Positions 14,372-62,914 of a DNA stretch of 64,000 nt are shown here, one piece after another. Position numbers and translations under genes: made by a program. The notes beneath the pieces are model-generated. The model was not told the DNA's origin. It worked only from the letters and a program-made list of their open reading frames with translations, and did not search any database. Positions within the stretch are counted from its first letter, which is position 1; each line of letters opens with the position of its first letter. Source of the DNA: Rhina ancylostomus (Eukaryota); assembly GCA_030265395.1 (NCBI GenBank), contig JARFYF010000017.1, positions 16,169,326-16,233,325 on the forward strand, in the 5' to 3' direction.

Positions 14372-14670
14372 AGACAGAAAATGCTGGAAGAATTCAGCTG
14401 GTTAGGCAGCATCTGTGGAAAGAAAAAGAGCTGAAGTTTCAGGTCCAGAACCCTTCATCAGATCTGAGAAAGAGAGAAACAGGTAGCAGAGTAGGTGGGG
14501 GAATCCCATTGGTGCAACAGAGGATTCTTCACTGATAGGGTGAAGTAAAGTGGCAATTAAGGGGCAGTTAAGATAAGATTAAGCATCCTGGTCTGTGTAA
14601 TGTGTTGCTCATATTTTATAGTCTGTGTTTGTCGCTCCAGATTCCAGCATCCACAGTCTCCACAGTCTGT
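14372..14670. mobile_element. Penelope-like/retrozyme-like repeat with a hammerhead ribozyme motif (14430-14464, - strand)
   Basis: The minus strand reads GAT-CTGATGA-A-GGGT-TCTGG-ACCT-GAAA-C-TTC-AGC. The flanks share the family motif GCTGGA(G/A)GAAxTCAGC...AGGCAGCATC. An inverted arm (CTCCAGATTCCAGCATC) lies near 14635-14660. Confidence 0.7.
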
Positions 14671-15429
14671 GGAATGTTGCATTTCAAGATTGGTATTGGT
14701 TTATTATTGTCGTCGGTTTATTATTGTCACGTATGGAGGTACAGTGAAAAATGTGTCTAGCATACCATTCATACAGATTAATTCATTACACAGTGCATGC
14801 AATGGTTTTCCNNNNNNNNNNNNNNNNNNNNNNNNNNNNNNNNNNNNNNNNNNNNNNNNNNNNNNNNNNNNNNNNNNNNNNNNNNNNNNNNNNNNNNNNN
14901 NNNNNNNNNNNNNNNNNNNNNNNNNNNNNNNNNNNNNNNNNNNNNNNNNNNNNNNNNNNNNNNNNNNNNNNNNNNNNNNNNNNNNNNNNNNNNNNNNNNN
15001 NNNNNNNNNNNNNNNNNNNNNNNNNNNNNNNNNNNNNNNNNNNNNNNNNNNNNNNNNNNNNNNNNNNNNNNNNNNNNNNNNNNNNNNNNNNNNNNNNNNN
15101 NNNNNNNNNNNNNNNNNNNNNNNNNNNNNNNNNNNNNNNNNNNNNNNNNNNNNNNNNNNNNNNNNNNNNNNNNNNNNNNNNNNNNNNNNNNNNNNNNNNN
15201 NNNNNNNNNNNNNNNCTGCGTCTCTTCCCCCAGATGCTGCCTGTCCCGCTGAGTATTTCCAGCATTGTCTGCTTTTATTTTAGATTTCCAGCATCTACTG
15301 TTGTTTCTTGATTTTCCCACTGTCATTTCACACGTTTTGAAGAGATCTGTTCTGTATCTATTAATTTGTTTCCCGTATGAAATTGGCCTTTACGAAAAGT
15401 GAGAAGACGGATAAGAAATTGGTCCAGGA

Positions 15430-16480
15430 AATGTACAGCTCCGTCTATTTGTCGCTCTTCGTAGTAAGTGTGCTCAAGGAACGATGCATGTATTCAGGTG
15501 GAAATCAAAAGGTGCACCGCTCTTTCACTGGAAAGGCACCACCCTCGGGGCTCGCGTCTTGCGGGGTGCAATCTCCTGCCTGTCGCGGCAGAACCTTCCG
15601 CCACTTCCCGGCCACTGTTGGCTCCGTGCCCGTCACGGACTGGTTCAGAGCGGAATATCAACATCGCGCAAAAAATAAACAGTCGCATGCTTAAGGAATG
15701 AAAGTGACAAAGAGATGTCTCAGCGCTTTTGTTTACGCTTATAGTGAACTTTCTCCGGGAGTATCTGAATGGAGTTAAATCAAAGGGATTTGCAACCGAA
15801 GAGTGTTGTTGGGTCCCGTCTGATTACTGCTACCACATTGGGAGCGCATTTGCCCCTGGTCGGTTCGTCCCACTGCCCTGCCTTTGAGGAGAACCTCCGG
15901 AACAGTGCGACAGCTCAACAAAGTTTCATCTGCGACTGGCCACACACTGTAAACGCTGGACTCCAGTCCTGTCCATTCAAACGCCACGCCCAGCCTGTGC
16001 CTGCTTCAGCCGGAGTGCGCTTGAGTGTGTGGCCCTTCTCCCCGGCGGACGGCGACCAGCCCTATCTCTGTCTACCACCTNNNNNNNNNNNNNNCTGGGA
16101 GCCCAGTAAACTGGCAATGAGCGAGGAGGATCCCCGCGTAACGGCGCGATTCGCTTTGAAGACTGCCCCCTACAATGAGTTGGTATCAGCGTCATGCTTT
16201 GAATCCTTGTATTTTCGCGAAGACTGGGGTGAAGCAAAGGCGTCTACAATTGAAGCCCGATATCAGGGGAAGTCTTTGCTGATATTAAACTTTGATTGTG
16301 GGAGTTCGTGGCTCCAGTTTGCTGAAACGGGCAAGAGATCGTCCTGTGGCTTTTAACATCGGATTAAACTGCTTCCAAAGTGACGGTAAGTTTCGTGACT
16401 GGATGTCCTTTCTCCGCGTGGTCTTTAGTTCATTATTTTCGCTGCTAATTCATGATTAGAATCGCCTGCTAACAGCTCCT
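15430..16480 (+). promoter_or_regulatory. KCNG4: CpG-rich promoter / non-coding first exon of KCNG4; splice donor at 16385/16386
   Basis: CpG density rises sharply against a CpG-poor background. There is a strong donor GACG|GTAAGT at 16385/16386, upstream of the acceptor at 17214/17215. The transcription start cannot be placed. Confidence 0.6.
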
Positions 16481-17214
16481 GGATGTCTCAGACCAGCCTC
16501 TCCCTTCACCGGCTCTGGCGCGCTTACTTCCATGCCAGCTAGGTGAGTTTGAAAGCTTCCCACCAACATGACAGGGAGGAGAGAGGAGGCTGTTCCCAAC
16601 AGCAGCTTGCTCCTTTATCCTCCGTGAACCATGATAATCAGGAGCTATCCGAAACTGCAAGGCACTCACGACCTGAAATTTTCGAACCAGTAATCCAGTT
16701 ATGCCCAGTTTAATATTTAAGTCCCATTTCAATTTGCAACCCAGGGGTAAGAGATGTTGAGCGCACCCAGTGATTTTTCACTGTGGGTATGGTGAATGCC
16801 AGATCTACACTAGGAAGTTAGATTATTCCCTACCAAGCACATACTTCACTGGTAAACTCCAAGCCATCGAAGGAAGGGGACGTGGGCTCAGTAGGGGTAA
16901 TGAACGCTTAGAGCAATTAAGGCAGGTTTCAAAAGTTGAAGCTCGGCTTGCCACTTTTGAGATTCAGTGGAAGTGGGACGTATATCAATGAAAGAAAAAT
17001 ACAGAGAGGCACTTAGAAAGTGTTGAAAACGCTCGACAATCAACGCTTCAGGTCGAGGACCTTCGGTTCTACTGTAAGTCTCTGCCACGGGACATTGTGT
17101 CCCCTTCTGAATAAGTCAATGCTTCTTGTTATATCGAAGTGTTCCGCGTTGGCTCTGACTATTGATTTTAAAGGCGCACAAATGTCTCCATGTAACCGTC
17201 TTCTTTCTGCACAG

Positions 17215-17244
17215 ATGACTTTGCCGCCCTCTGTAACGCACTGA
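17215..17244 (+). other. 9-codon upstream ORF (MTLPPSVTH*) at the start of the KCNG4 ATG-containing exon
   Basis: Acceptor TCTTCTTTCTGCACAG|ATGACT. The TGA ends at 17244, 7 nt before the main ATG at 17252, and the uORF is out of frame with it. Confidence 0.6.
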
Positions 17245-17251
17245 TTCCACC

Positions 17252-18004
17252 ATGCCCATCATTTCTCGAAGCAACGAAAACGACTACAGTAACCTGAGCG
17301 ACTCGTCGTGTAGTACCTTGAATCAGATTGCTCCCTTAATTCACGCCGAAACTTCTCCTGTCAAAGGAGCCTTCTATCGCCGTTCGGGAAGGATCCGCCG
17401 TGCAAATCAGCTGAGCCAAACAGAGCAGAAGCAAAACATCATCCTCAACGTGGGGGGAACCAAGTATTTGGTGCCTTGGCTAACTTTGGATGAGTTCCCA
17501 CTTACAAGACTTGGGAGATTAAAGTTTTGCCGCAACTATGAAGAAATCGTGCAGATCTGCGACGATTACGACGAGTCCTCCAACGAGTATTTCTTTGATC
17601 GGAACCCGTGCGCTTTCCGCATGATCATCACCTTCATTTCTGCGGGCAAACTGCGGCTTTTGAGAGAGATGTGTGCCCTGTCATTCCAAGAAGAGCTCGT
17701 TTACTGGGGGATAGAGGAGGCCAAACTGGAGGCCTGTTGCCGCAGGAAGCTCGTTCAGAGAGTCCGAGAGGTGGCCAAGATCAGGAGAGGAGAGGAGACT
17801 GAGGTGGAGGAGGAGGAAGTCGATGTTCTGGTTGCGAGCGGCAAATTGGGTTACTATATGGGCAAACTGCGAGATATGGTGGAGAATCCTCAGTCAGGAC
17901 TGCCTGGGAAAGTGTTTGCCTGTCTCTCCATTATATTCGTCACTATCACAGTAGTTAGTCTTTGCATTGGTACAATGCCAGACTTAAGGTCAGAAGAAGA
18001 CCGG
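17252..18004 (+). CDS. KCNG4: Voltage-gated K+ channel modifier subfamily G member 4 (Kv6.4), coding exon 1 (T1/BTB domain and S1), 251 codons
   Basis: Kozak CCACCATG. Motifs NVGG, YEEIVQICDDYDE, EYFFDRNP, EMCALSFQEEL, MVENPQSGLPGKVFACLS and TMPDLRSEED. Phase-0 donor CGG|GTAAGT at 18004/18005. ENPQSG, EEIVQ and MPDLR match KCNG4 better than KCNG1 or KCNG2 (from recalled sequences). Confidence 0.93.
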
Positions 18005-19812: not shown

Positions 19813-19829
19813 ATGAGTCACCCCCACAA

Positions 19830-20275: not shown

Positions 20276-21284
20276 AATAAGGAAAGATGAGAAATGAGAA
20301 AGTGCACTCTTGTCTGGCTATCCATCTCAATGTTTATAAGGCCTTGTGCCTCAATCCTTTGTATAAGGCCATGTACAGGAATTTAAATTTGCTGGCTTTT
20401 GGAGGGCATACATGCACGTTCTTAATGTTGTGGGGTGAAGGTGTGGGCATGTATGCGCAAAGCCACCAATTTGGATTAGATGTGCTCTGCCCCTCCCTCC
20501 ATCACTTCCATCCTACCCTTGTGCTTCATTACAACAGTGACTGCACATTATAAATGCTTCATTGGTGAGAAACATCCCCTATTTTAAATATTCCCTATTT
20601 CTTCTTAGTTCAAAATGTGTAGACATTTCAACTGAACAAAATTAGATGTTGAGAAATAAATTTATCATAAAACTGAATACTTTAATATGAAGATACCAAA
20701 TTAGATTTTGATATTTCAAGATAAATGCTGTACAATAAAAGTTGGAAATTTGCAGGCAGAGCTCAAACGAAACTGTGCCATACATTAATCAGCCCAAGTA
20801 AGAGAAATTCAAATTAGGATAGATTAATGGGCAAATATGAAGCTTTTAATAAACTTTTCTTTTGAAGAACTTCTGAACCCTTGGTCCAAACAGATAGACT
20901 TCAGAGTTATTTAAGATTTGCACCTTTGACCAAATCTGTCCTCCTTCAATCCTTTGTCAGATTAATGCCCATCAGATTAAAACAGAGAGAGATTTATCAG
21001 AGCTTAAGCTTGCAATGGAAGTTTAATCGAGATTGACCAAACTGTTTTCATTTTGAACTATTAACACTGCACAAAGATAGAACACTTTAATGTTATCTGC
21101 CCTTGACACAATTGACCAAGTTCTAACAAAGACAGCTGCCCATGTGTACTCCAGTTTTCATTTAGGAGTAATTTGAGTTATTCTGGATGAATGAGAAACA
21201 TTATTGATTTTTTTTAAATGTATCTTAGAGTGTCTTCCTTGATGAGGGAGCATAAATCTAACAATTTTAGCCATGCCACAGTTG

Positions 21285-21420
21285 AGACTGGAATCTGGAG
21301 CAAAAAACAAGCTGCTGGAGCAACTCAGAACATAGAGTCTTGTTGAAAGGTCTCAACCAAAATGTCCACTGGCAATTTCCATCTACTGATGCTACCTGAT
21401 TCAGCAGCTCATTTTTGTTT
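21285..21420. mobile_element. Degenerate copy of the hammerhead-bearing repeat
   Basis: GGAATCTGGAGCAAAAAACAAGCTGCTGGAGCAACTCAG left arm, then TTGTTGA-AAGG-TCTC-AACC-AAAA-TGTC as a decayed core. Confidence 0.55.
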
Positions 21421-21842: not shown

Positions 21843-22100
21843 GATGGAGTCACAAGAGACTGCAGCCAACACACAAAGAGCTGGAGGAACTCAGCAGGTT
21901 AGGCAGCATCAATGGAGGGAAATGGGCAGTCAACATTTTGGGTCAAGACCCTTCACCAGGACTTAACAGTTCAGGCAGCATCTATAGAGGGGAAACTGAG
22001 AGTCAACGTTATGAAGGCTCTTGACCCGAAATGTTGACTAGCCATTTCCTTCTATAGACGTCGCCTGACCTGCTGAGTTCCTCCAGCGCTTTGTGTTTTA
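21843..22100. mobile_element. Penelope-like/retrozyme-like inverted-repeat insertion with two hammerhead-derived motifs and a 12-bp TSD
   Basis: GCTAGCATGCCA is duplicated at 21831-21842 and 22101-22112. The arms GCTGGAGGAACTCAGCAGGT and ACCTGCTGAGTTCCTCCAGC are inverted. The motifs lie at 21928-21963 (-) and 22011-22039 (+). Confidence 0.8.
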
Positions 22101-28729: not shown

Positions 28730-31429
28730 TTTAATGGATTGATTCATTACTGCTTCTTACTTGTGCTGAATTACAAGGAATGTACAGCACAACAACAGGC
28801 TATTCACCCAAATAACCTGTGTTGGTGATTATGCTCTACACAAATCTTCTCCCATTCCATCTACCTCATCTCAGGCTTTAAGGATATCTTTCTTTTCTCT
28901 TTTCTCTCCTGTGCTTATCTACTTCCCTTCTGAATGCATCTGAGCTCTCTAACACTCCTTATGATAGTGATTTCCATATGCCAACCTCTTCTTAAGTTAA
29001 AACATTGTCCCTTATTTTCCAATTGGAATTATTAGATACCATCTTGTACTTATGGCCCCTGGTTTTGGATTCTTCCATGGAAAATATTGGGGGCAATATT
29101 AATCCTCTACCTTGCATCAGTTTTAGTGGGTTGAGAACTTAAAATGTTAAAAAAACTGTAACAGGAATCCAATTCGCTTAAAAACTGCTCCCTTCCTGTT
29201 AAATAGAATGGTGGAAGAGGTAGGCAACCAATCCTCACCCTGGAAGAAGGTCATGTGATTAACCTTTTACGGAAACACAGTGCTTCCATTTGTTTAAAAA
29301 AAATGTACCTTTAATTCATGTTGGGCAGAATTTCTGGGGCTTGAGAAATCTAGCAGATAAGAGAAGAGCCAAACCAACAGGAGAGAGGCTTTCCAGCACA
29401 TGCCTAATGGATCTGAAGAAGGACCAAACGTGTTTAAGTCCAACAAGATTAATCTGTGAATCACTGCAATATTTCCAACAACCGTATGCTATTTGCTTGA
29501 ATCCTATCTTGAGAACTATCTGTACCCTACCTAGTACTGCCCCACCCCTCAACAACAAGCTCCTCAAAATCAACACATCTACTATCAGAAGTAATTTCTC
29601 CTGTGGCCAAAATATTCAACCCTCTGAGATCCCTCACAAGAAATGTACAGTGATCTCTCTTGCTTACCATTCTCTTCAGCCCCCCCACTCACAACCACCG
29701 GCTCCATCCTTAACTGTCATCTTCTGCCAAACGTTATCTCCAGCCCAAGGGACAATCTCTCTCATCCTCACTGCCTAACTCCCCTCCTTGGGATCTCTTC
29801 CACATCTGCTAAATGGTCTTGGCAGCATCACTCCCTTCCTCAATGCCTACTCCTCCATCCAATGCGTAGCAAGCTCATCAATCATCCAGGTTGCCAGCCA
29901 GAAAATCTGGACAAATAACTTGAAAGGCATCCTTCAGTTAACAACAGCAGGACATTCAAGAAACTCATCCATCAGTGGTTCCCTTCATAACACCTTGTGG
30001 CTGAAATCCTTCCAATGTCACCCCTCAGGAGGTGCAGCCCTATAAATATCAAGGCCATTTCCTCCTCATCTAACCTTCTAACTTTAACCCCTGCCCCATC
30101 CCCACTCTATTAGGTCTCTCTTATGTCTTTGGTTTCTAAAGAAAAACTTCCCAACCTGTTCAGTCTTTCATGATAGTTGTAATCTCTCAGTTTGGTATAT
30201 CCTTGTAAATGTTTTCTCCAATGCCTCTATGTCCTTTTAATGAAAGGGAGACCAAAAAATGAGCAGATTAAGTATGCCCAGAATCTTAAATCTTTAACAT
30301 CCTTACAGCTTTTGAATTCTATAAGAAATAACTGCCTTTGCAAGGTTAACATTCCTTAATTGCTTGGCTGACCTCCAATACTGCATTCAATGATTTGCTC
30401 CCTGAGATTTCTGGATCTTTTTATTCTTCTAACTGATTTGGTTTTCTATTTTCTGAGGGGTAGGCCACATTTCTGTTTGTACCACTAAAACGCGCCACCT
30501 CACATCTGTTAAGGTCCATTTGTCACTGCCCAGTCTGTAGGTCTTCTAATGTCTCCTTGTATTATATTGCATTTTGCAGTGCCCCATAATTGGCTTGCTT
30601 GTTTTTGGCTTTTAGTGAAATACTTTTTCTTGAGTTGCAGATTACCCTTTTGAAGATTTCCTGCTGCTTTCTGTCTCCTTGACTTTCAAGGATTTGTCTG
30701 TTTACTTTCTTTAATCCATTCACATTTCCTCATACCTTGCTCTTTTCAATCTATCCTTAGATTGTGCCTTATTTATGTCAATCCAAATTTTGAATCTTAT
30801 GATGTTGTTATCACTACCACTGAGATATTTGCCTATTCTAACTTATGCTATCTGTTCTGCTTCATTAACCATTATAATATCCCATACCAATTCCCTTCTT
30901 GTTGGACTTTTATATTTAGTGAGAAAGGCCTCAAGTACATAGGGCTACCTGAAAATCAGATGGCACTGAAATACGTACATTATAAAGTCAGTTCTTGATG
31001 AGTCAATGAATATTTTGTTTGTAGGGCAGCAACAGGAAATTTAAAATCCATGGAATTGTGACTTTGAACAGGCCTTGCAAAATCAAGGGCTTTTTCTTCT
31101 TGTGCTCCATCACTAGGGAGTGTTCAAAGGTGAGCAGGTTTGTCTGGGATCAGCAATTTGTGGAGCAAAGAGGATGGTTGTCAAGGATAGTGGGCATGTG
31201 GTGGGGAATAGGTCAGTAGTCAGGGGATTGTTAATAGGTGATAGGTGATGCCATATTTGGTTCAGATCAGCAGATCAAAGGGTGGGAAGCTCACGTGGGG
31301 GCAGCATGCTGGGAAGAGGAACCACCACCAGGGTTTGTAGTTGAGATGGCAACTGTTGTGATGTCCTTGAACAGTAGGTTCTCAGCACCAACCCCTCAAT
31401 GCTAATACAGACCTCAGCAGAGCTGTTAG

Positions 31430-31792
31430 GGACCAGAAAACAAACTGCTGGAGGATCAAGCAGCATCCATGGAGGTAAAGGGATAGTCAATGTTTCAGGT
31501 GGAGACTGAGAGCATAGAAGGGAGATAGCCAGTGTAAAGAGGTGAAAGGGAGATGTGAGGCAGGGGCTGGCAGGTGATAGGTGGAACCAGGTGAGGAGAC
31601 AAATGATGGACAGGTGGAGCCAGTGGGGTGAGGGCGAGGGGTGGAGTCATGAGACAGTGGCTGGTGGGTGATAGAGACAGATAAGGAAAGAGGAAAGAAA
31701 AGGGGGCAGATGGAGTCAGATGAGGGGAGAGGCTAGAGACAGAGGCCTGAACATGATGTGGAAACATGGGGGTGTAGATGCTGGAATCTGAT
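31430..31792. mobile_element. Penelope-like repeat fragment (purine-rich body, truncated hammerhead end)
   Basis: CTGCTGGAGGATCAAGCAGCATCCATGGAGG...AGTCAATGTTTCAGGT, a GA-rich body, then GATGCTGGAATCTG. Confidence 0.55.
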
Positions 31793-33560: not shown

Positions 33561-35724
33561 AAGATCCCATGACATTGTTTGGGAAAGTTATCTCTGGAGA
33601 CATAGACAATATTTATTCCTGATTCAACATTACTAAAGCAAATTATCTGGTTATTATCCTATTGCTATTAGCGGGAACTTAGTTTTACAAAATTGGCTGA
33701 AATATTTCCTATAATACAGCAGTGCTACATCCAAAATCACTTCTGTAAATTGCTTCAGAACATCCTGATAAACATATAGTAGCATTTTATAAATCTTTTA
33801 CAAAATTCTTTTCTAAATGGAATGGAATAGGAAAACAGGACCTATTATGTGACCTATTTAGTTGTATCAGCATTGAAAAGGTGTCTTTATCCTTCAGCTT
33901 TACTGTTGCTTAAAATTAAAAATGAATTCAGAAAGTAAGTGGAGAAATTCCTTTAACTATGCAGCATGGTGCTGAACTCAGATGGAACTGAGAACTAAAG
34001 GTGACCTTGGAGTCCTGGTGTAAAACAACTCCTGTTGCAGTTTAACTGTATTCTGAAGCAATCCATCTGAATGATACACTAAAAGCTGTAACTCTATCTG
34101 CAGTTACAAAGGGGTTGAGTATTTGAACTGGACCTTCCTCATTAAGAACCAATTTCTTTAGTGGTTCCACTTCTTTTTCCAGATTATTTTCTTACTAATG
34201 TAACCTCAGTTTCCAGTACTGTACTGTTATTAGCTGCTTTGTTTTTTATTTAGTATACTCATTACCCTTCTTTGAAAAAGAGCATTGATAAAATAGTCTT
34301 TAAAAAACAGTTCTGCAGCAGCACCAATGTATTGCTCCAAATTAAAATTTAGTTCTCCCCTTTCCTATATTTAGTGACAGTGAATCAAGGCCAATTAACT
34401 TGCCAGCTCAACAACTGCCTTTAGAATTACTTTCCATCAAACGAGATGATAATTTACAATTTACACAATGTTGCTTAATCAAGGTATCTCCAAGAGTTTG
34501 TAGTTATTCTTTATTAAATTAAGAGTTGATCTGAGTCATTAATTTCCATCTGTCGTGTAATAGGAAGCAATTAGCAATCTTTGCTCACTGGCGATGCACT
34601 GTAGCTCAATACTTCCCACACAGAACAAGATCAACAGAACTATCACATTCACAGGCAGGAAACAACTGCTTATTTTTGATACTTAAGTAATGTAAACTCA
34701 TGCCAGGAGTTGTGAGAATACACCATTCCAGACCATGAAGGGGCATGTTTTCTGTATAGCTAAAAGAGCCAACAATTAATGTCTTTTGGAATGCACTGGC
34801 ATGGTAAAACTGAAAATTTCAGGTTGTTACTTCCTAAGAACGATAATAATTGTGGAGACTATTGCACAACTAGAAGCAGCATTATTGTAGTAGATCCTCT
34901 GTGGCATCATGGCTTGTATTAATCACAGCCCTACAGTGGAGTCAGTCATTCATTGCTAGCTCACCAAATCTGCCTGGCACTGGAAAGAAATCATTGATGT
35001 AATGCTAACAGTGCTATTATGTGCTGCAAGGATATAAAGTGTTTAAAAACAGAGGAGTGGCTGTTACTATTGAATGACAAAAGGACATTTGTTGTATTTA
35101 CTTCTAGAACCTTGCCTCAGCAGGATCAATACCTTTAAGGCATTCAGAGAAAATTTAAAGGCTCCAACCTCCGGCTCCTCCCACTTAACCCTGCGCCTGG
35201 CACCCCCACACCTGCCTTTCTACCACCTCCCAAACCCTCTTAAGGGTCCTTATAATCTCTGGCTGGCATTTCTGGTCTCTTTGGCAGGGGTTTCTGCAGA
35301 TGTGTTCTCAATCTGTCAGAGATTCTTCTCGTCGGTCCCCTTGAAGCAATGACCTTAGTTGAGGTCAGTGGCAGAGCTACCAGCTGCTAAGAGTGGACCC
35401 TGAGGGATATCCATGCTCTGATGTGTAGTCCAAGTGGTTGCACATATCAAGCACAATAATTTTGCCCTGAGCAATTTTAATGAGCATTAAATTTGTTTCT
35501 GTTGATTGATAAAAAAAAAAGTAGCTACTGGCAGGACTAGCAGACAGAAATAATGGATCTGTTGGCTGCCCAGAGTACTAGTTGTATCCTGGAACATAGA
35601 GCACATTTTAAAATCACAGCAGACGCAAGCAGAACTGGAAAAGGGAAATATAAATGGAAATTAATTCTGAAATTCAAGCTGCCAACTCATGTTTGTCAGC
35701 TACATAAAGAGAGAGGTATTTAAA

Positions 35725-36040
35725 AGAAACAAAGGACTGCAGATGCTGGAATCTGGATGAAAAACACAATGATGCTGGAGGAATTCAGCAGGCCAGGCAG
35801 CNNNNNNNNNNNNNNNNNNNNNNNNNNNNNNNNNNNNNNNNNNNNNNNNNNNNNNNNNNNNNNNNNNNNNNNNNNNNNNNNNNNNNNNNNNNNNNNNNNN
35901 NTGATGCTGGAGGAATTCAGCAGGCCAGGCAGCATCCGTGGAGAAAAGCAGGCAGTCAACGTTTCAGGTCCTGAAGAAGGGTCCTGCTTTTTTCCACAGA
36001 TGCTGCCTGGCCTGCTGAGCTCCTCCAGCATCATAGTGTT
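35725..36040. mobile_element. Penelope-like inverted-repeat element with fused half-hammerheads at its centre
   Basis: GACTGCAGATGCTGGAATCTGG left end and inverted arms. The centre AGTCAACGTTTCAGGTCCTGAAGAAGGGTC combines GAAACGTTGACT (-) with CTGAAGA-AGGGT (+). Confidence 0.7.
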
Positions 36041-38779
36041 CAGTAGCAGAATGTGTGCTTGTAAAGAGTGTCTCTCTTTATAAGATACAGGCTCGGAAAT
36101 GGGAATGTAACTGAGGTGGTCACCTAGAAAGATCAGCAAGCGAACAGTCCAGTTCAGACTCACAACCTAACCTTTACCACACATTTCTGCATACTATTTA
36201 CCTCCTAAGACATGTCAGATAATCTTTTGGAAGTTGCAATAAATGTGATTCCACTAGCATCCAGATCCTCTCTAAAGTTTCACCAAACTTTTTAAACCAA
36301 TGATTTCCAATTATCAATCCACTTATCAGAAGAAACAACTTCTTATTTATTCTATTAAACCTGCCATGATTTAGAATACCTTTATTGGGTCTCTGTATAA
36401 TCTGAAATCCTGTAACTTTAGTATTATAAACCTTGCTGTTCTTTCTCCAAGTCCTTGACATCTTTCCCAGTGTACAATGCTCAGAATTGTCCACCACACT
36501 GAAGCTGACTAATGGTTTTGTATGATTGCTTTTTGATATCCCTATTGCAAAACACTTTATCAACTTGCCCCACCACCCAAAAAAGATTTGTGACTATGCA
36601 TTCCTAGGTCAATATGCTCTTTCACACTCCACAAAATCATAGCATTTATATTAAACTACCTCTCCATATGATTTCTCCTGAAGTGCTTAACTTTACACTA
36701 AGTTGTATCCACAATCTGCCTGTCCATTTTACAAATTTGAAATTGTTCTTCTTCAGGGTAGGACTAATCTGCTTCCTGGACCCAAGAACCAGATCATTTA
36801 TAGCAAGGAAAGCAATCCTACAACATGCTTCTCAACAGCCAGAAAAACATCTCTCATCACTGTTTTCTGCCTCACCCTCCTTCATCATTTAACTAACTAA
36901 GATTCCATTGCTATTTTAATACCAAGTGCTCTACTTTACAAGTAATTCTGCCGTAACATGTCTATTAAAAGTCCATATGTTCATCTACTATACTTTTTCA
37001 TGAATTTTATTATTTCATCAAAGTATTCAATTCAGTTAATGAGACACAACTTGAGGCTTTTTACAAATACACATTGGTTATCACCTATTAACCTAACCTC
37101 TGTAAGTGAGAATTAATTTTGACTCTGAAAATTATCTCCAGCGACTTTCCACTTACCAACATTAGATTAATTGCTTGTACCTACAAGGGTTATACTTCCT
37201 TCTATTTTGGAAGAAGGGAATAACTCTCTGCATTCTCCAGTCCCATATTCATGAACTGAAAGATTGTCATCAAAACTTCCCTCCCTGACCTAAGATGCAT
37301 TTCTCCTAGGCCAGGTGACATTAATTTTCATATATGTTAACCTACTTTCATACCTATTCTATCTGTTTCAATACAACCTATTAATACTATGGCACTCTCC
37401 TCCACTGTGGCATTAACTTGACCCTCCATTCATTATATTTCTCCTTTACCAAAAATCCTACTGAACAATAGTGCCAATTAATGTTGAATTATGGACAGTT
37501 TCTCAAATGATATTAAAATAATTTAAAGGTAATTCACCTGGGCCAATTAATATTGGTGTAAATACATGTCTTTCATTATTTTGGGCAAAATAATGGTGAA
37601 GTTGACAATCCATAGTAATGCAAAGTTGCTTGACTTTTTTAAATCAGAAGACACTGGCTTAACAGATGCTTCAGACCACAATGTAACAATATGAGGTTTC
37701 ATTAACTTCTTTTGATTGTTTTGCTCCAATTGGGACCTTTTGAAAGCAATATTTAATGCTGGTTACATCTGCTGAGAAAAGAACTCGAATGCAGCAAAAT
37801 AAACTCTTGAACAAAACTGTATTTCTTAATTTATGATAACAAACAAACTTTTGAAGCAAACTTTTTATGGCTCCAGAATTTATGAAAACTTAATTCAAAG
37901 ATAAGTACTTGCTGTTGACGATATGAACCAAATGATAAACCAAAGGGGTTGAAAATTAATTGTACCATTTTATTGTACCTCGTGTGTGGCTTTTAAGTGA
38001 AACAAAATGCTTCAGTGATCTGAAACTAAAAATAAAATTAGATCAATTTGCTACTAATTAATTTGACATGCAAAATATTATCTGCTTTTTTTCTTCTTTT
38101 TCTTCCTCTTTCTCTGAGGCAATCATGTAGGGTCAAGGATGACTTGCTTCCAATCTGGTTTAGTGGGTTCTGAGGTGGCTGATGTGACCAGTGTGTGACC
38201 TGAAGTTTCTGTCACAAGTGGGGCAGGAAGTCTTGGCTGGAGAGTTTGGGAAGTGGTGCTTTCCTTCTGCTGCTTCTGTGTACTCCTGACAAATATCCCA
38301 GGGGTTCTCAATGTCATCCTGAATGGTCCTTCTCCATGGATCAGGGATTTCCACAAGTTGAGGGTTTTGAGAACATTGGTGAATTGTATCTTCTGTCCAC
38401 TCTCTTCTGAGACAAAGCTCAGAACATGGTTTCTATTTCAGGGCTCTGATGTTGGGCATCCAAGCTGACAGGGTGGAATTAGGGCCTGGGACTGGATGCT
38501 GACATTGAGTTGCTTATCTTGCCAGTTTGGAGGATTGTGCAGAGACAGCATAGGTGATATCTCTCCACTTTGAGTGCCTACTGTAGGTAGTCCAAGTCTC
38601 AGAAGAGGATGGTAGGGCAGGGATTACTGCTGTCCAGCAGAACGTGAGCTTTGTGCTGGGTTTAGGATCTTGATTTCTAAATATCAAGATGGCTAAAGGA
38701 TGTTCTGATCCACTGAGGCAAGGATGAATTTGATCATCAATGACTTCCTTCATTAAAAGATGTCTCCCAACATATAAAG

Positions 38780-41108: not shown

Positions 41109-43299
41109 NNNNNNNNNNNNNNNNNNNNNNNNNNNNNNNNNNNNNNNNNNNNNNNNNNNNNNNNNNNNNNNNNNNNNNNNNNNNNNNNNNNNNNNNNNNN
41201 NNNNNNNNCCTGAGGAAGTATCCTGACTCCAGTCTTGTATCGGTGTGCTGCATTTGGGTTCTCTGTGAGTTTGCTCTGGATCAACTTTGTGACACTTTCT
41301 GTCATTGCATTATTTGTAATAAGGTGAAAGAGGCTGTCACTGGCCATATATATTCAAGGTTATAGCTTTTGAGGTAACTCCAACATAAGAAAAAATGGTG
41401 ACTATCAAAGACAGCCAAATATCAGAAAGGATCAAGTCTCAAAATTGGAACTGTGTATTCAGTGAATGATCCAAAGCAACAAAAAATTCCATTTATATAG
41501 TATCTTAAATGTTGTGAGGGACTTCACTGGAGTTATCTCAAATACACTTTGACACAAAGCAACATAAAGGCATGGTAAGACCAATGTTAGTTCTGAGGAG
41601 AGTTTTTTAGTTTAAAAGAGTGAGGTAGAGGTGGGAGAGGCTGAAGAGGCAACTCCAGAGCTTAGAACCTCAGCAGCTGAAGGTATAGCTATTGATTATA
41701 AACAGGAATGTTCAGAGGCTGGAATTTGAGGTGCATGGAGTTCTTGGCAGATTACAGGCCTGGAGAGAGCAACAAGGGGAACAGCCAAGAAAAGAATTTC
41801 AAATTAGTGTGAATATTTTCAAAATTTAGATGAATGAGGAACAAGAGCCATTGTAGATCACTGAGGACAGATGGGTGATCAGTAACAGGAGTTGTCACAA
41901 CTTACCATGCAAGGAAGATTCTCTTCAGGAAACAATTTTAGATAAGGCAGATTTACAATATTCTATCCATCTCCTTCACCTGAGAGGGGAATATAGAGGT
42001 CCTGGAAAGGATGTGGATGAAGATGTCAGACTTAAGGATCTTCAGGCCGACATGTCGGCCTGAAGATCTTTACTTTAATGAAGGGATTGGACTTAACTCA
42101 GGTGAATTGGTTGCTAAAGTCAGGGAAGTTAGCAAAATCCAAGGAATGCATGCAAAAATGACAAAGGCCAAGATGAGTCTCCCAGAACCACTTCTTATGA
42201 CAGAACTCTCAATACTTGGAAATATGTTAGTGCAAACATTCAAATCAAGCAAAATTCAGAGGGCGTCTAACTTAGCTAAATTCGGAAGGTAAGTGGACTA
42301 CTGGAAGTTAATTCACATTGAGTTGGAGCTTTGTTGTGCATCTTTCAGGACTTGAAGATACAGTTCCCAGAGCTCAGTATGTGCGTAGGTGAAAATGTGC
42401 TGAAATTGCACCATGTCAGAATGGAACATGCTGAATAGACCAGCTGATCCACACTTGTCCTTCCTGTATGATCACATACAAGTAAACAAAAAACATCCAT
42501 TTTATGGCCAGCAGCAGACACTAATAAAAAAAACAATCAACACAATCTAAATCCAATCAGTAAAGACTCCAGAGAAAACTGGGAAGATATTTCACAGGAG
42601 GAAGAGGTGGTTTTTACACCATTAAACTCCCAATAGATAGAGCAAATTTATAACTTACATTATCAATGGTTTTACAGTTTTTTTTCAAGTTGAAACTTGT
42701 ACAAATTAGTGTTTCTATTAATTTCCATGTATTCAGAGGTTTTGTGGTTCACACTATTCTTTAAACAAGGCAAGTCAAATATTTACATTCCTTGTAAATT
42801 TCTGGGATTCCCATAGCTGCTCCAGCAAACATTTTCTTTTGCATTGTAGATCATGTGCCATTATGTGGCTTGACATGGACAAACTGTGTCTCAGCAACAG
42901 CAACAGCTATTCTCAAGGTCATTTCCTTTCAGCCTGTGCATCTGAGGAATATTTTTCTATTTCCCCATGAGAAAGAAGGAAGTTATTCGATCCATCAAGT
43001 TTACGTCACCTCTTAGGACAATCCCATTCCCCCATTTCTTTCCCTGTAAATTGTCTCACACGTCACCAAACCTCCTTTCCCAGAAATTTTTTATGAGCCA
43101 CCTGCACAAGGGATGATTAAGAGCTGGTAATTAACCTAAGAATGAGCATGCATTTAGGATGTGAGGAGAAATCTGGGGCTCTCTGGGAATCCCACGCAGA
43201 TATGTGTGTTCAAGCTCCACAGAAAAGCTGCATCGTTCATCAAAGATGGAATAGGGAAGGAGTTGTGTAAGTGTTGATTTTGATGCACTTCTGAGCAGC

Positions 43300-43395
43300 A
43301 TAAAAGCAGAAAATATTGGAAATATTTGGCAAGTCTAGCATCATCTATGTAATAGAGTTAACATTTCAATCCAATGACCTTTCTTGAGAACCAGA
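43300..43395 (-). mobile_element. Old copy of the hammerhead-bearing repeat
   Basis: The minus strand at 43356-43392 reads GGTT-CTCAAGA-AAGGT-CATTG-GATT-GAAA-TGTT-AACT. Confidence 0.45.
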
Positions 43396-50215: not shown

Positions 50216-51783
50216 CAATAACTTATGGTTATTTTCCAAGGTTGTTCACTGGATTCTTACTACAGGACTCTGGCAGTACTAGTGAGAAAGTCCAGCACAG
50301 TACATCCTGAGATAAAGGAATCAGTCATTCGTGCAAAGCAGATGAAAACTGTTATATACTTAGACTGATGTTACCAAATGTAATTGTACAATGAATGGGT
50401 AATGTGAAGGTAGATGTAGATTCCATAATTTTAAAACTAGAGTAACATTTTTTATGTGACATTCTGGATAACAGAAAATTGTAACTGTGCCATAAAATTA
50501 CAGCACTATGGAAGTGCCTACGCCATAAAAACTGCAGGGTTTAAGGAGGCAGCTCACCACCACCTTTGAAGACCATTAAGGATTGGTATTAAATGCTATC
50601 TTTACCCATTATGCCTATAAATAAATTTTAAAAGAAGTATCTGTAATAAGCCCAGAAATAACCACACATTTTTAATCTAGAGTCCAAGGTTAACCTTTTC
50701 TCTCTTGAGGGAAGCTGAAATTTTAGCCCTGCCTCTTTCTCAATGGTGCTTCCTGACATTCTGAGGATACCAGCATTTCCTGTTGTTTTCCAATATCTTC
50801 TCACAGGGTTATTTCTATGCACCATCCATGTGGATTACAGTAAATTAGCTCACACAAAGCTTGGTATATTTGATTTGGAAATTCCCCAATACCAAATGAT
50901 AGAATAGTTGGGGAACACACCTAAAATAAAGCCATACAATTGATATAAAAACAAATGCAATAATGTGGAGCACAAGCAAAGGTGGAAAAAGGAGGCGCAT
51001 CAACAGGGACTACTTTCAGTGTCCCAATCAACAATATAATATAATGAAATTCAGAATTTATCCTTTACTAGATCACATTGGAATACATTTCCAATGATCC
51101 AAAACTGCAGCTTTTTCAGATTATTCAATCAGTTTACCCAAAATAGTTTGAAGTATACCCATTAAATATTATCTGCATAACATTATAAGAATATAAAGCC
51201 ATATCAACTGTAATTAGATTTTAAACACTTGCCCAGGAAGTATTAAAAGGATGAAACAAGGAGTAATTTTCTGAATGTGTGCTGACACAGTGAAACTTCA
51301 CACCACAGCACACAGTAAGAAGTGACAGGCGACACTCTGATGGTAACTAAAGACCCTGTCCCAGCCTGGAAACAAAGTTTTGATGAACTGAGGGTTACAT
51401 TAAGGCATGAGGAGACTTGATAACCATTCTCAAAATTTAGCAATAATCTGGTCAGCCCTTATTAAATGCATATTGACAAGGATCAGTGTGTTTTCTCATT
51501 GCGACTGCCATTTTATGCCTTTCTGAAAACTAAATGATGAGTTATTTAAAGCTAACTCTTCCCTCTTGCCTTCTGGAATATGGTTTGGAGATGTTCAATA
51601 CCATCAGTGTATATCATGCCAGGAGGAAATCTTAAAAGGAAATGCAATCTTTGGCTAAGGCACTTTAGTTTACTGGTCATAGCATAGAATATTCTTCCCT
51701 GAATGAGGAAGGAAAAAAATTCTTGGCATACCCCACACAGTATCACATGTCTCAGGCAGTCATTCATTCACTATGCAGTTTTG

Positions 51784-51958: not shown

Positions 51959-54399
51959 CTAGGAAAAGAAAACAAAAAATTATTATGCTGTACCAACTCA
52001 ATGAGATTTATCAATAACAATACTAAAATATCAAAGAGTAACACTTAAATTTTATATACTACTTTTAACAGCAAAAGCATCCCAAGATGCACAATAGAAG
52101 TGAAAAAGGACAAAAATTGTATACTATTGAAAGAGAAAATATTGCAAGGGATGACCAAAGGTTTGGACCAAATTATGAGTATTAAGGGGCATCTTAAATG
52201 AGGAATGGGAGAAAGAAGTGACAGATGGACTTAGGGAGGAAATTTAGAGCATAGGACCTTGATAGCAAAGTCATGGTCACAGAAGCAGCAACCCCAATAT
52301 TGACTGGGGCATGTTCTGTGAGTTGAAGGGCAAGATTTTTGTTTGAGAGAAGTCTAGATTTTTTTTTCCCTCCCAGCAGTCTCTACCCTGAAGGTGGTCT
52401 AATTAAGAGATTTGGCTCTATGTTGGTTGGGAAGGACTGGAGGAGGTTAAATCTGAAGTTATAATCTTGGCTCGGATCCTGCTGATAAACACTACTATTT
52501 GACAGGTTAAATGGAAATAGGTCCAGGCTTTCTGTATCCAAATTGAGCAGGTCCATGTCAGCAAAATCTGGCTGATTTAAATAGACATGTCTCCCAAGAC
52601 CAAGTTAGTTAGCTACCTGGCTCCTGTCCTTTCTCCATTAAAACCATAAGTGAGCAATTTGGAGAAGGATTGTGCCTAGGCTTTGAAATATTTGGTTGAG
52701 CCTGACCAAAACCAACTCTTTTTAAGGTCTGAATGACCTCGCAGTAAGTTATATCACAGGAGGCAGAGATTCAACGAGTTATGCCAGAAACAGCTCTTTG
52801 AAAGAACTAATTGGTTTCATTCCTGACACTCTCCACATGCTCTTTCATTTTCCTGCACGTTCTCTTTATATTTGTTGTTAAAATTGACTAGTTAATCTGT
52901 TTCCACAACTGTTTCAGGCTGCAAATTCCTTGCTGTGTAAAACAATTTCTCTTCAACTCCCCTTTGGTTCTTTTGCCAATTATCTTCGGCTCCCACTGAT
53001 TGTACATTCTCACTTCTGATACCAGCATTTCTGCATCTCACCCAAGTACTGACCTGCTTATCTCTATTTTCTCAATCTTTTCAGATCACATAAATGTTTG
53101 CTCTTATATTCCTCTCCTTATCATCAATGCATGTGCCAAAGCCTCAACAGCATTTTACACAGCAGAAGGGGTTGAAACCGACCATATTATTAAAAAAAGC
53201 AATAGTAAGATACAGGAAATGACTGGGTTGGCCAATATGTTATCATTCATTTGCATTTCACCATCCACAACTTTTAGTACAAAGCACTATGATCCAAAAT
53301 GTGTGATGTAAATCAAACAGCACAACAGCAAGAGGCTAAAGCTGGGCTGATACTGCATTTTCACACCACTGAACATTAAGTTCACACATTAACTCTCCAA
53401 CATTATTTTTTAATGCATCATTTGTTACCATATGTTAGAACATCAACATCTTTTAAAATATTTATTTTGCATTTCTCCAGCTCATTTGCCATGACTTAAT
53501 TTTCCTGGAATTTCCATGCTTCTTCCTCCATTGTTACGGACTTTACATGAGAACCCTAGCCCCTATGGACATTCACTCTCAACCTGCTGAGCATTTCCAG
53601 AATTTTCAGTTTTTGTTTCAGATTTCTATCATTTGCAAATTTTTTGTCTTTTGGCTTCTGCATGGTTAAATGCAGCTTGAATCTGAAACTCTCAGGCTCC
53701 ATTTAAACCCAACCAGAAATCAGTGGGAAGGGTGGGAAATCAAATGTGCTGGTTATTGGTGACTAATATCAAATGTAAGGTTGGGAGCTGGGAGCACATA
53801 AGGATTGGAGATGAAACCAGTCTGCAACACTCTGCTTTTCTTGTCAAGCCCACAGTTTTAAAAAACCTTTCAGACCTTGTTTTGATTGTAATCTATGTCC
53901 CTCCTTAACAAATGGGGCCAGATTCTCACTGTGCTCCTTTGCCTGAGAGGATGAGTTAAAATTGGAATTGGAACCTGATGGCATTACAGGCACATGTGGA
54001 AAAAAATAGGAACGTTGATTTTGGGCCAGTTGAGTACATTAAAATGAGCAANNNNNNNNNNNNNNNNNNNNNNNNNNNNNNNNNNNNNNNNNNNNNNNNN
54101 NNNNNNNNNNNNNNNNNNNNNNNNNNNNNNNNNNNNNNNNNNNNNNNNNNNNNNNNNNNNNNNNNNNNNNCACCATGGAATAAAAGCATTAGCAGAGTGC
54201 AGTAATAAGATTAACCATGGTTATTTTCAAATGAAATTAGTCATGCAAGTACATGAGTGATGTTAACTATTGGCAACTATGGCATTGGATTCTACTGGTA
54301 CAAAAAATGGACCAAAGAATGAATAAAACATTTTAAAATAAAATCAAAACACATGGGAACAATTATAAGGCCACAGGCTGTGCTTCTATCTTTCAAATG

Positions 54400-55500: not shown

Positions 55501-55522
55501 GCTTTGATTGTTGCCTTGAACA

Positions 55523-58376: not shown

Positions 58377-59220
58377 TACATGTGACTCCCATGTTACAGA
58401 GGGATGGTGTTCCTAGCAAACCATTTGTATCGCAATTTTCCATAACATGAAACACTATTTCCCATTGAATCCCATGTTGTTAGTGGAGATGCATTTCTAT
58501 GGGATGTTTATCTCTCAACAGTATTGATAGTACCACAGTTGCTGCTTCATGGCAGTGGGCCAATTAAGAGATTGTCAATTTCCAAAGCAAATTTCTTAAA
58601 TGGTCAGTAGCGATGCTTGGAGACACAAGTAACTGCAGATGCTGTAATCTGGAGCAAAGAACAAACGTAAGGCTGGAAGATGATAGGTAGAGACAGGTAT
58701 AGAGAGAGGGGAAAAAAGGACAGATGGAGCCAAGTGAAGGGGGGAAGGTCGAGATAGGTGGCAGTCTCTTGTGTCTCCACATCACCTTCCAGCCTTCAAT
58801 TTGAATGGCGACATACACTATTAAATATTGATTATAAGTAAGGTAATGATATAACTCATGACAAATAACTATGGTCGTTTAGATTTACAACTTGCACTTA
58901 AACTTGCTGACCCTGTTTCAAACAGCCTAAGGGTAAATAATATGGAAGACTCTTGAAAATAAATCTGCTAGAGAGCAAAATGAATGTGCCACGGTAAAAA
59001 AAAGCCACATTATCTGCACGTGCATCAAGAAATGAGTTTAAAAAAAACAAAAATAGACTAAAGTTGTTTCTTTTTCATTTTGTGTTGTTTTTTAATTTAA
59101 TTTTTTTCCCCACAGCGAGCAAATTTTATTCTGTATCTTGGATTTTTGGGTAATGATTTGTGAATTCCATAACGGCAAATTTCCATAACCCGAACAGCCG
59201 TAATGTGGGGGTTGCCTATA
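58377..59220. mobile_element. Possible Tigger/pogo-like non-autonomous DNA transposon, with a Penelope-like fragment inserted at about 58615-58790
   Basis: Degenerate inverted termini TACATGTGACTCCCATGTTAC and GTAATGTGGGGGTTGCCTATA, each bounded by TA. Subterminal TTCCATAAC repeats are present. Confidence 0.4.
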
Positions 59221-60621: not shown

Positions 60622-60830
60622 CCTGAAGACCCACACTCAACATTTTAGGAACAGCTTCTTCCCCTCTGCCATCAGATTTCTGAATGGTCCATGAACACTA
60701 CCTTGTAACTCCTCTTTTGCACTATTTACTTATTTTTGTAACGTATAGTAATTTTTATGTCTTGCACGGTACTGCTGCCGCAAAAAAAAACAAATTTCAC
60801 GACATAGGTCTGTGATACCTGATTCTGATG
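60622..60830 (+). mobile_element. Rex1/Babar-like LINE 3' end (body probably in the preceding gap)
   Basis: LKTHTQHFRNSFFPSAIRFLN and tail CCTGATTCTGA; closely similar to 19495-19725 and 63350-63577. Confidence 0.8.
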
Positions 60831-61374
60831 CTGGGGATTCTGCTTTGTGATCCTGCCTCAAGTGTAGTCTGGCCCAGGGATCCCCAAACCATTCATTCAA
60901 ATAGGGAAGTGCAAGAAGAAATGGGAAAATAAGCTAAGTTACATCTATTTAATTATGTGTGCTTAATTTAATCTTTTGAATTACTTATGCATAACTTTTA
61001 TTCATTATTAAATGTTTCTCAGAGGTACTGAAAACCTGTAGCAACCTGGAGAGCCAGCAAAGCTGGGGATGGGGTTTCCATAGCTATCAAGAGGTTTTGT
61101 GAGCAGGGCTTGATGTTGACCAGCCACATCATCCCTGCCATCACACTGGGACCTGACCCTAAGCTCCAGTTGGCCGGATTTGGTTGACAGAAGGTCAGTG
61201 GAATGTGGAATATGGGCAGCAAGCAGATGTCAGTAAATTCAGAGCCTGTGCATTAAGACTGCCAGACTGGACAGCTGGGTCTAGAAGCTGCTGCACACCA
61301 ATTTTTGGTGCTGATATAACATTGTGGGTCACCCCACTGCTTGTGTGAAAGCCGCATAAAGAGCCGAAAGCTCA

Positions 61375-61590
61375 TAGTGTAACCTATCACTTACTGGCCC
61401 CTGTCTCACCATTGCCTCTCTCCTCTTTGGACAGGATATCTTCCCTCCCCACACTCAGTCCTGATGCAGGGTTTTAATCTGAAATGGTAACTATTCCTTT
61501 CCATCCACATTTGCTGCTCGACCCACAGAGTTCCTCCAGCAGGTTGTTTGTTGCTCCAGATCTCAGCTTCTGCAGTCTCCTGTGTCTACA
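61375..61590 (+). mobile_element. Penelope-like repeat with a degenerate hammerhead (61457-61492)
   Basis: AGTC-CTGATGC-AGGGT-TTTA-ATCT-GAAA-TGGT-AACT, followed by GAGTTCCTCCAGCAG...GCTCCAGATCTCAGCTTCTGCAGTCTC. Confidence 0.65.
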
Positions 61591-62239
61591 ATGTGTAATG
61601 CCACACTGAAACTGACATTGTGGGTTTCACTGTGGCATTTCCTACTGGTACGTTTCAAGTTCTTGCAGTTGTCAGCAGGTCGCCCTGCAAGTGCAATCTT
61701 GGCAGACAATTCTCAAAAAAACCTCGCACAATTCAAACAGCTTTTTGGTTACTCCCAAAAGTCAGAGAGAACTTGACAGGCTGGTGAAGAATTGTTCCTG
61801 TGGGAAGCATTTTGCTCATGGAGGGAGGTAAAGAAATCCCTTTAGGGCTACAGCCAAATGCCCCCAGGAAAAAGGTTGACACCTTAACTGCAAGTAACAA
61901 TGGCAATGATCAATAGATAATTTAGCCATCAAACTATAGTAGTGAAGAGAGTAAAACTTAGAACAGAATAGCTCGATCCCATCAAATCTAATGATCTTAA
62001 ATGTCTGGCAATTCAAGAGTCCAGAATCGAAAGATTAGTTTTTAGATCTTTTATTCATTCTACCCAAGGGAGGTTCAAATATTTCATCATTAACCCGATA
62101 TAAGGCTTGTTAAAACCTTAACATTGCCAAATATAACAAGAAGAGCAAAGCAAACCCTTTCCATATCTCACTCTGTTTTATATTGATTCAGTGAAAGGAA
62201 AAATTACTTGGGCATATAACAGACAGCCAATTCACAACA

Positions 62240-62354
62240 AAAAAAATATCGACATACACCTTTTGCTCCAACAGAGATGCTTGACCTGCAGAAATCTTCC
62301 AGCGTTCTGTTTTTTGTTATCCTAGGTTCCAGCATCTGCAGTCTCTTTTGTCTT
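62240..62354 (+). mobile_element. Short copy of the same repeat with a 16-bp TSD
   Basis: CAGCCAATTCACAACA (62224-62239) and CAGCCAACTCACAACA (62355-62370) flank ...TTCCAGCATCTGCAGTCTC. Confidence 0.7.
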
Positions 62355-62914
62355 CAGCCAACTCACAACATCAGGTTTACCAGCCGGCACTGAAAATTAT
62401 TCAACAACTTCCCAATCCTGCCATTATTTTTACAGTAATTCCTCCTAACTCTTGAAATTGCATTAGTATATCCTGATATGCAGAAAAGAGTATCTACAAT
62501 CCTATTAACAAAATTTTCAATTATCTTCCTTTATTTTTACAGTGTGCAAAATTATGTAGGGCTCCCAAACATCTACTGTTCTATACATATGATTTTTTTT
62601 GATGAAATGTACTACTGCATAATCCAGATTTGGTAATCACCAATTATTATCTGCCAGTTTTGAATAATAATGGTCCTGCTTTCATTTTTAATTCATGACA
62701 GTGTATCTTCCTTTCCATCAGTGGTGAGCAATATCTCACACCCGCATGTACCCGGAGCAAGTTCTCAATGCTGCCTCCAGAATGGCTAGGCCTTGCACAG
62801 CATGGAGCCTGGCCAATCAGGAGACGGCAAATCCTGCCCCAGAAATGCTCTGATGGCAGGTTAAGCCACAACCTTACTTTTGTCAGAACTGCCAAAGAGC
62901 TTGAATTCACAAGC

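Follow-up and report, generated by a model that had tools for sequence, protein, structure and literature searches.

Short dispersed repeats with a minimal hammerhead consensus in Rhina ancylostomus, likely end-pieces of Penelope-like elements

A family of mutated short repeats is scattered through the 64,000-nucleotide stretch of Rhina ancylostomus DNA analysed here (the window), and its consensus fits that of a minimal type I hammerhead. The repeats are likely 3' end-pieces of Penelope-like elements (PLEs), consisting of a pseudo-LTR with an optional tail, and are probably inert, a reading to which we assign a probability of about 85%. The family is an ordinary new example, minimal hammerheads of this type having been described in 2014, and it extends the pairing of PLE and minimal hammerhead, here densely represented, to a ray-like genome. 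No literature on such motifs in elasmobranchs was found beyond a preprint sampling one chondrichthyan, and a search combining hammerhead ribozyme, Penelope and shark returned a review that names the shark only for its shape.

All 12 loci listed in the original prediction belong to one repeat group. Specifically, leave-one-out profiles regained 11 of them at E<0.001 (1.4e-18 to 8.2e-4), and the best match in the reversed window was no better than E 4.1. The remaining locus, at 58.6 kb, reached only E 0.6 in that search and was recovered by others, namely a profile search in which it was a non-seed match (E 6.2e-6), a comparison with the 61.4 kb copy (81% over 48 nt) and the similarity of its leader to the 31.4 kb leader (E ~1e-7). 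What look like separate copies at 35.7 and 35.9 kb are probably a single copy, interrupted by a 100-N gap with 32 identical letters on either side. The four stretches quoted as examples of the motif proved exact in letters, coordinates and strands. Copies measure 60-350 nt and contain no ORF; the proposed high copy number is supported by one 381-nt stretch, matched by 16,600-22,900 contigs per run, and a homologous pyrimidine-rich leader is found upstream in three copies and also in 236-330 contigs per run.

The copies are truncated as described, with variable 5' ends and common 3' ends, the latter falling into two groups about 35 nt apart (short and long ends). With the 61.4 kb copy as ruler for the alignment and 61488 as the last letter before the predicted cut, these two 3' ends follow that cut at distances of ~65-72 and 96-105 nt. 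Among the single copies, that at 14366..14500 (-) has a pyrimidine-rich leader, whose left end is approximate, and the short 3' end, and that at 61382..61592 (+) has a leader of ~70 nt and the long one. The longest copy (31416..31760, -) joins a pyrimidine-rich leader of ~250 nt to a decayed 3' part, the 5' core of the hammerhead being deleted; just upstream of it, in direct orientation, lies a tail fragment resembling a partial tandem (31758..31790, -), weak alone (E 3). The old copy at 43290..43395 (-) runs to the short 3' end, and the copy at 50712..50801 (+) is heavily decayed (E 4.9e-5). The 3' part at 15219..15312 (+) has the long tail and lost its 5' part in an N run; another, at 53569..53650 (+), is decayed, with tail and without hammerhead (E 8.2e-4). 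The copy at 62240..62354 (+) is 5'-truncated, starting near GAAA and reaching the long end.

Several other insertions are made of inverted arms, in agreement with the pairs originally noted. The single insertion at 21281..21420 (both strands) consists of two head-to-head arms, one with the long end (21281-21326, -) and one with a decayed hammerhead and the short end (21336-21420, +). Likewise, a single insertion at 21843..22098 (both strands) comprises three pieces: one with the full motif, A6 and G12 changed, and the long end (21843-21963, -), a partial tandem (21970-22010, -) and one without C3-G5, ending short (22011-22098, +). A young fold-back insertion at 35722..36045 (both strands) has arms that are 92% complementary; its minus arm, interrupted by the 100-N gap, has the long tail, its plus arm has the short end, and the hammerhead is divided between both strands at the arm junction. 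At these three loci (21.3, 21.9 and 35.9 kb) an inverted 5'-truncated partner adjoins the 5' end. The arrangement is looser at 14.4 kb, where an inverted, tail-only 3' fragment (14626..14668, +) is possibly the other arm of an insertion for which no target-site duplication was found, and at 58.6 kb (58617..58779, both strands), where a minus-strand leader is joined to the tail, the hammerhead is deleted and an inverted tail end of 19 nt (58761-58779) is present, both ends reaching the long 3' end. The extra tail of ~35 nt is found on one arm only in all three adjacent head-to-head pairs, and also in the looser 14.4 kb pair.

As regards the hammerhead, the majority sequence of A1, an alignment of 10 fragments with the motif, contains CUGANGA, GAAA and UH in order together with stems I and II, and it passes a strict minimal-hammerhead descriptor that none of 300,000 shuffles passed. 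The predicted minimal type I hammerhead is thus borne out for the consensus; its presence in several copies holds only at that level, no single copy in the window matching the strict descriptor. The best-kept motif (14430-14464, -) retains 11/11 core letters and C17, with one stem I pair broken; the motif at 61457-61492 (+) has A9 and U16.1 changed, and the 43.3 kb copy combines a U-A stem I variant and a 5-nt loop II with a changed G5. Minimal type I hammerheads have been described in the PLE pseudo-LTRs of metazoans, with a consensus that includes an extra base, a G10.1-C11.1 pair and a palindromic 15.2/16.2 (Cervera and De la Pena 2014, PMC4209133). In the window, the extra base between 9 and 10.1 is A in 7 of the 8 rows having a letter, positions 10.1 and 11.1 hold G-C or G-U in 4 of 7 rows and A-U in one, and 15.2/16.2 reads CG, UG or CA in 8 of 9. 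The extra base, originally taken as a viroid-like trait, belongs instead to the consensus that is standard for minimal hammerheads of PLEs (PMC4209133). The motifs share with that published set CUGANGA, one extra base, a G-C-closed stem II, GAAA, the palindromic CG and UH, as well as a short stem I, a U-rich leader and a layout of mostly single dispersed motifs with some opposite-strand pairs; they differ in that stem II is short (4-5 bp), no ORF-linked copy was seen and the window holds ~1 locus per 5 kb. The supplement file searched yielded no shark or ray row.

In contigs from four runs, two-way CpG-decay variation is seen at 15.2/16.2 and at 17 with the base that follows, which points to an ancestral CG and, in part, C17. 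Allele shares in these contig runs lean towards the reference copy; at 21956 and 22018, both 7 letters from alignment ends and uninformative, there was no variant row. A fixed GUU had been held to speak against a hammerhead, which does not agree with part 2 of the published supplement, where U17 is present in 20 of 44 hammerhead rows (PMC4209133). The suggested covariation in stem I did not rise above shuffles: the covariation score was 0.104 against a shuffled mean of 0.122 and 420 of 500 shuffles scored as high, in a test of little power that used 10 decayed fragments of close kin. A single pair change, C-G to U-A, is common to the 14.4 and 43.3 kb copies, and at this same pair the 61.4 kb copy has a C/A mismatch. 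Short folds of single copies were not more stable than those of shuffles (z -0.71 to 1.30). Of the 11 Rfam matches obtained for the window up to E 5, none was to a hammerhead, decayed minimal motifs of this kind likely being below the reach of the Rfam hammerhead models. The microRNA-family matches were hairpin look-alikes, with scores below the family cut-offs.

Target-site duplications of 10, 14 and 16 nt were found at 3 of 9 insertions, respectively a 9-nt exact direct repeat (10 nt with one mismatch) flanking the 21.3 kb insertion, 14 nt with one mismatch at 21.9 kb and 16 nt with one mismatch at 62.3 kb. Random pairs gave 10 nt in 32 of 400 cases, and 14 or 16 nt in 0 of 400 each. At two further insertions the duplication spans 7 nt, no more than chance would give (88/400), and four have none; a tight-boundary control (13/1000 at 10 nt) was set after the repeats had been seen and is not relied on. 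A miniature inverted-repeat DNA transposon, with the hairpins as terminal inverted repeats, would account for the inverted pairs at 3 to 5 loci and for the fold of the 35.9 kb pair (z ~ -15), but single arms occur with their own duplication (62.3 kb), arm lengths, junctions and duplication lengths all vary, and the hammerhead motif would be left unexplained, which makes this reading very improbable.

The anatomy agrees instead with PLEs, which have been described with inverted pLTRs, duplications of 8-10 bp and, on a single arm, a 31-bp tail (Arkhipova et al. 2013, PMC3846280), and with a tail of 30-40 bp often found at one end only (Craig et al. 2021, PMC8557442); this tail signature has been called unique to PLEs (Frangieh et al. 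2024, PMC11167929). The window shares with EN+ PLE insertions the 5' truncation, head-to-head inverted pLTRs, an optional one-arm tail of 30-40 bp and short duplications of variable length, with the differences that copies here are short and lack an ORF and that duplications extend up to 16 nt. In the PAc element (Poseidon, Anolis carolinensis; PMC11167929) a hammerhead is likewise followed, ~100 nt downstream, by two tail-defining 3' ends. Cleavage has been shown for PAc and needs its protein, whereas here it is a prediction; the PAc ORF starts at stem II, whereas here the frame from the ATG in the hammerhead core runs into a stop in 4 copies among those translated. We infer PLE enzymes and ribozyme activity, as follows. 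The target would be nicked by the element's GIY-YIG nuclease, and reverse transcription would start at one of the two sites described above; synthesis would usually halt early, or switch template and add an inverted second arm, and repair would leave a duplication of 10-16 nt. In the parent RNA, by analogy with other PLEs, the motif may cleave weakly, as a dimer or helped by the element's protein.

The Penelope-like origin originally proposed is supported by insertion anatomy and not by a linked ORF. In line with the original remark that no such ORF is visible, Pfam detected no PLE RT or GIY-YIG remnant in 261 of the 428 stop-free frames, those of at least 60 aa, and for this reason the connection with an autonomous element is one that we infer. 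A fuzzy six-frame search for five PLE peptide motifs gave one implausible match, the translated 35.9 kb arms had no match in a protein search, and protein and contig searches returned no PLE ORF joined to the repeat. Translation of the 31.4 kb leader gave two matches, one to a repetitive Ig-like protein and the other to an unnamed frame of 76 aa; neither is a PLE protein, and both were rejected. Pattern scans for the motif or the 3' part gave 0 matches in viral contigs and 0 in prokaryote genomes; scans of metagenomes gave 0 and then 2 matches, of only ~22 nt in GC-richer DNA, dismissed as chance. In the frames scanned with Pfam, RT domains lie only at 433-1053 and 55034-55399. These fragments are of LINE type, 5' truncation and variable duplications are common to LINEs, and the failure to find a PLE ORF would fit as well; a LINE or SINE 3' end resembling a hammerhead by chance is nonetheless highly unlikely, given that the RT fragments adjoin no copy, that the window has no tRNA gene and the repeat alignment no poly(A) or simple-repeat end, that the chance of the motif match is <1 in 300,000, and that a pair of 3' ends with the tail on one side has been reported for PLEs.

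Somewhat less improbable is a non-LTR retrozyme, a non-coding tandem unit that cleaves itself to monomers, which circularise and are then copied by enzymes of PLEs. The family is non-coding, high-copy and hammerhead-bearing, as are retrozymes, which have a type I hammerhead and a proposed mobilisation by PLEs (PMC7229834; bioRxiv 10.64898/2026.07.22.740005) and which a 2026 preprint reports from the one chondrichthyan genome it sampled, deriving them from PLE pLTRs (bioRxiv 10.64898/2026.07.22.740005). However, retrozymes are head-to-tail tandems with canonical type I hammerheads, expressed as circles, whereas the motif here is minimal and the copies are dispersed or head-to-head; the window's six tandem arrays are all of other units, and the retrozyme-like alternative once raised is not supported. 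In addition, 0 of 19 fragments start within 3 nt of the predicted cut (local alignment, ends approximate), and we regard this reading as improbable. If self-cleaved RNA were the template of PLE end-pieces, an excess of 5' ends would be expected at the cut site, where none lay here; the huge copy pool would allow computation alone to test whether PLE copies derive from self-cleaved RNA. As for the donors of the PLE end-pieces, full-length elements are somewhat favoured, with short non-autonomous derivatives retaining a substantial share of the likelihood. A more specific and rather unlikely proposal is a dedicated non-autonomous PLE-derived short element, possibly with several hundred thousand copies in rays, whose stems would steer RT template switching into fold-backs joining at or inside the motif. 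A young subfamily would carry a fixed GUU site, and the family would retain the motif for its structure more than for cutting.

Finally, the copies look inert for host genes. The coding exons of KCNG4a lie at 17252-18004 and ~27929-28726 (+), and the coding intron between them (18005-27928) contains the 21.3 and 21.9 kb insertions, as foreseen. Placement of copies in an SLC66A2-like intron is conjectural: one PQ-loop exon is present at ~51787-51959 (-), and no upstream exon was found in the window. Adoption of one or more copies by the host, as ribozymes that act on transcripts of KCNG4 or the SLC66A2-like gene, would fit the copies in the KCNG4 intron, the age of the 21.9 kb left junction and the full set of core letters at 14.4 kb, yet the two KCNG4-sense motifs have each lost 3 of 11 core letters and the more complete copies run antisense to these genes, and such adoption is scarcely credible. 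The 21.9 kb insertion is old, since its left junction is spanned by contigs of two organisms, and KCNG4a itself matches Mobula at 88%.

The dozen short repeats of the window, named here by their position in kb, belong to one repeat family, as the original prediction had claimed. In particular, leave-one-locus-out profiles recovered 11 of the 12 listed loci at E ≤8.2e-4, the best E in the control, a reversed window, being 4.1; the 58.6 kb locus was missed by its profile (E 0.6) and is tied to the family through other searches. The 35.7 and 35.9 kb pieces, with 32 identical letters in common across a 100-N gap, are probably a single copy, judging from this shared sequence. The placement of these letters on either side of the gap, within 35770-35933, suggests a false gap from a fold-back insertion.

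The hammerhead stretches quoted earlier were correct when re-read from the window, and an alignment of 10 fragments of the repeat bears out a minimal type I hammerhead at the consensus level. Specifically, the majority runs through stem I, CUGAUGA, an extra A, a stem II of 4-5 bp, GAAA, two letters, UH (positions 16.1 and 17 in hammerhead numbering) and stem I, and passes a strict minimal-hammerhead descriptor built after PMC4209133, as did 0 of 300,000 shuffles. No single copy in the window passes it. Out of 11 core letters (from CUGANGA, GAAA and UH), the 14.4 kb copy keeps all 11, the 43.3 kb copy 10, those at 21.9 and 61.4 kb 9, those at 22.0 and 21.35 kb 8, and the remaining four 3-6. The named structure, which is derived from the same sequences, pairs 80.6% of cells; in slid positions the share is 16-45%. 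The covariation hinted at originally is not borne out, its score being no higher than that of shuffles (420 of 500 as high). The sole compensated change, C-G to U-A beside the core, occurs in the 14.4 and 43.3 kb copies and counts as one event, since these copies also share a 5-nt loop II.

Contigs from four sequencing runs of four organisms were aligned to 21780-22160 at 80% likeness; 16,577 to 22,908 matched per run, a measure of abundance and not of copy number. In all four runs, with allele shares biased towards the reference, C takes 35-42% of the depth at position 17 against the reference T, the following base changes from G to A in about 10%, and positions 15.2/16.2 carry C at up to 26-30% and A at 10-12%. 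The variation at 15.2/16.2 and at position 17 with its next base is two-way CpG decay; the window is depleted in CpG (observed/expected 0.22). Loose ends at 21917 reveal a subfamily that resembles the 35.9 kb copy; its majority has U17 even though it retains the CpGs in two of the four runs. A fixed GUU had been proposed as grounds for refuting the hammerhead reading; it does not refute it, because U17 occurs in 20 of 44 rows taken from a published alignment (PMC4209133 supplement). The 21.9 kb insertion is old, since its left junction is crossed by contigs of two different organisms.

In the loose ends at 21963 the plus strand is rich in purines, which corresponds to a pyrimidine-rich leader preceding stem I. 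This leader is common to three window copies and terminates in CAG at 14.4, 31.4 and 61.4 kb, an end resembling a 3' splice site in sequence; the Drosophila virilis Penelope intron is described as ending at helix I (PMC4209133). The leader of the 31.4 kb copy contains, at 31510-31760, an internal repeat (period about 100 nt, 65% identity). The 5' core deletion of the same copy (31498-31512) appears bounded by two GTC words, in stem I and stem II, which suggests microhomology; GTC is also used at the 35.97 kb junction.

The anatomy of the insertions was mapped on the 61.4 kb copy, whose predicted cut lies after 61488, with approximate local-alignment ends. Truncation has left the 5' ends scattered. 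Most 3' ends, by contrast, lie in one of two zones downstream of the predicted cut, around +64 to +73 or +96 to +105 nt, and several decayed copies end at +53 or +80 to +86. Inverted, head-to-head arms occur at 21.3, 21.9 and 35.9 kb, with an extra stretch of about 35 nt on one arm only in all three; the looser pair at 14.4 kb has the same asymmetry, and the 58.6 kb locus has two long ends. Flanking direct repeats of 10, 14 and 16 nt, with one mismatch each, were found at three of nine insertions tested, a 7-nt repeat at two and none at four; of 400 random pairs, 88 attained 7 nt, 32 attained 10 nt and none attained 14 or 16 nt. This arrangement matches insertions of Penelope-like elements (PLEs), described in PMC3846280 as having inverted pseudo-LTRs (pLTRs), duplications of 8-10 bp and, on one of the arms, a tail of 31 bp; PMC8557442 gives the tail as 30-40 bp, often present at a single end. 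In the Anolis element the tail is the interval between two reverse-transcription start sites, a signature called unique to PLEs (PMC11167929).

By motif and anatomy, the repeat is probably the terminal pLTR of an endonuclease-type PLE that carries a minimal hammerhead, a kind of repeat already known. A scan of 261 of the window's 428 stop-free frames revealed no trace of a PLE RT or of GIY-YIG, and protein and contig database searches tied neither of them to the repeat, so that it is assigned to PLEs by its motif and anatomy. RT fragments (RVT_1) at 433-1053 (E 3e-19) and 55034-55399 (E 7e-4), together with an ALKBH8_N match at 62941-63174 (E 2e-10), are probably remnants of presumed LINEs. 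The retrozyme-like alternative of the original prediction, a group reported in one chondrichthyan (bioRxiv 10.64898/2026.07.22.740005), was rejected on tandem arrangement, head-to-tail arrays of the hammerhead unit being absent from the window. A literature search on elasmobranch hammerheads found no paper, and the supplements of that preprint may list the family. The density of the PLE-type repeat, 12 loci in 61 kb, would imply several hundred thousand copies in a batoid genome of 2.2-4.0 Gb, if the window is typical.

For the truncations, inversions, two 3' ends and duplications seen here, other PLEs suggest a course in which a GIY-YIG nuclease would nick the target, reverse transcription would start internally, and synthesis would stop early or switch template. 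Metazoan minimal hammerheads are reported to be weak in self-cleavage, which takes place only in multimers or when helix III is lengthened (PMC4209133); the hammerhead of the Anolis PLE needs the element's own protein and is dispensable for insertion in vitro (PMC11167929). By local alignment, 0 of 19 fragments start within 3 nt of the predicted cut, consistent with uncleaved templates. Where arms stand head to head, a single transcript cannot contain the motif twice in sense.

In the window, the frame 17237-18088 is KCNG4a, whose coding intron is at 18005-27928. Its best match is Mobula hypostoma at 88%, followed at 64-79% by other rays and by sharks, which makes a ray the likely host. With three core letters missing from each of the motifs in KCNG4 sense, ribozyme activity in host transcripts appears unlikely. 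The minus strand carries a PQ-loop exon at about 51787-51959, probably of an SLC66A2-like gene, as originally named; no exon upstream of it was found in the window.

The window also contains a hairpin at 4059-4154 whose 41-nt arms are 95% complementary and 14 nt apart; it may be a small inverted-repeat element, and Rfam MIR397 matches it at 53.4 bits, below the cut-off of 55. Another hairpin lies at 3304-3382 (32-nt arms, 91% complementary). An exact 65-nt tandem duplication at 47245-47374 either arose recently or is an error of the assembly. Finally, at least three further dispersed families, of 75-93% identity and unrelated to the hammerhead family, occur at 19455-19721, 60622-60817 and 63314-63578; at 4669-4819, 39802-39992 and 55536-55770; and at 38773-39218 with 49779-50220.
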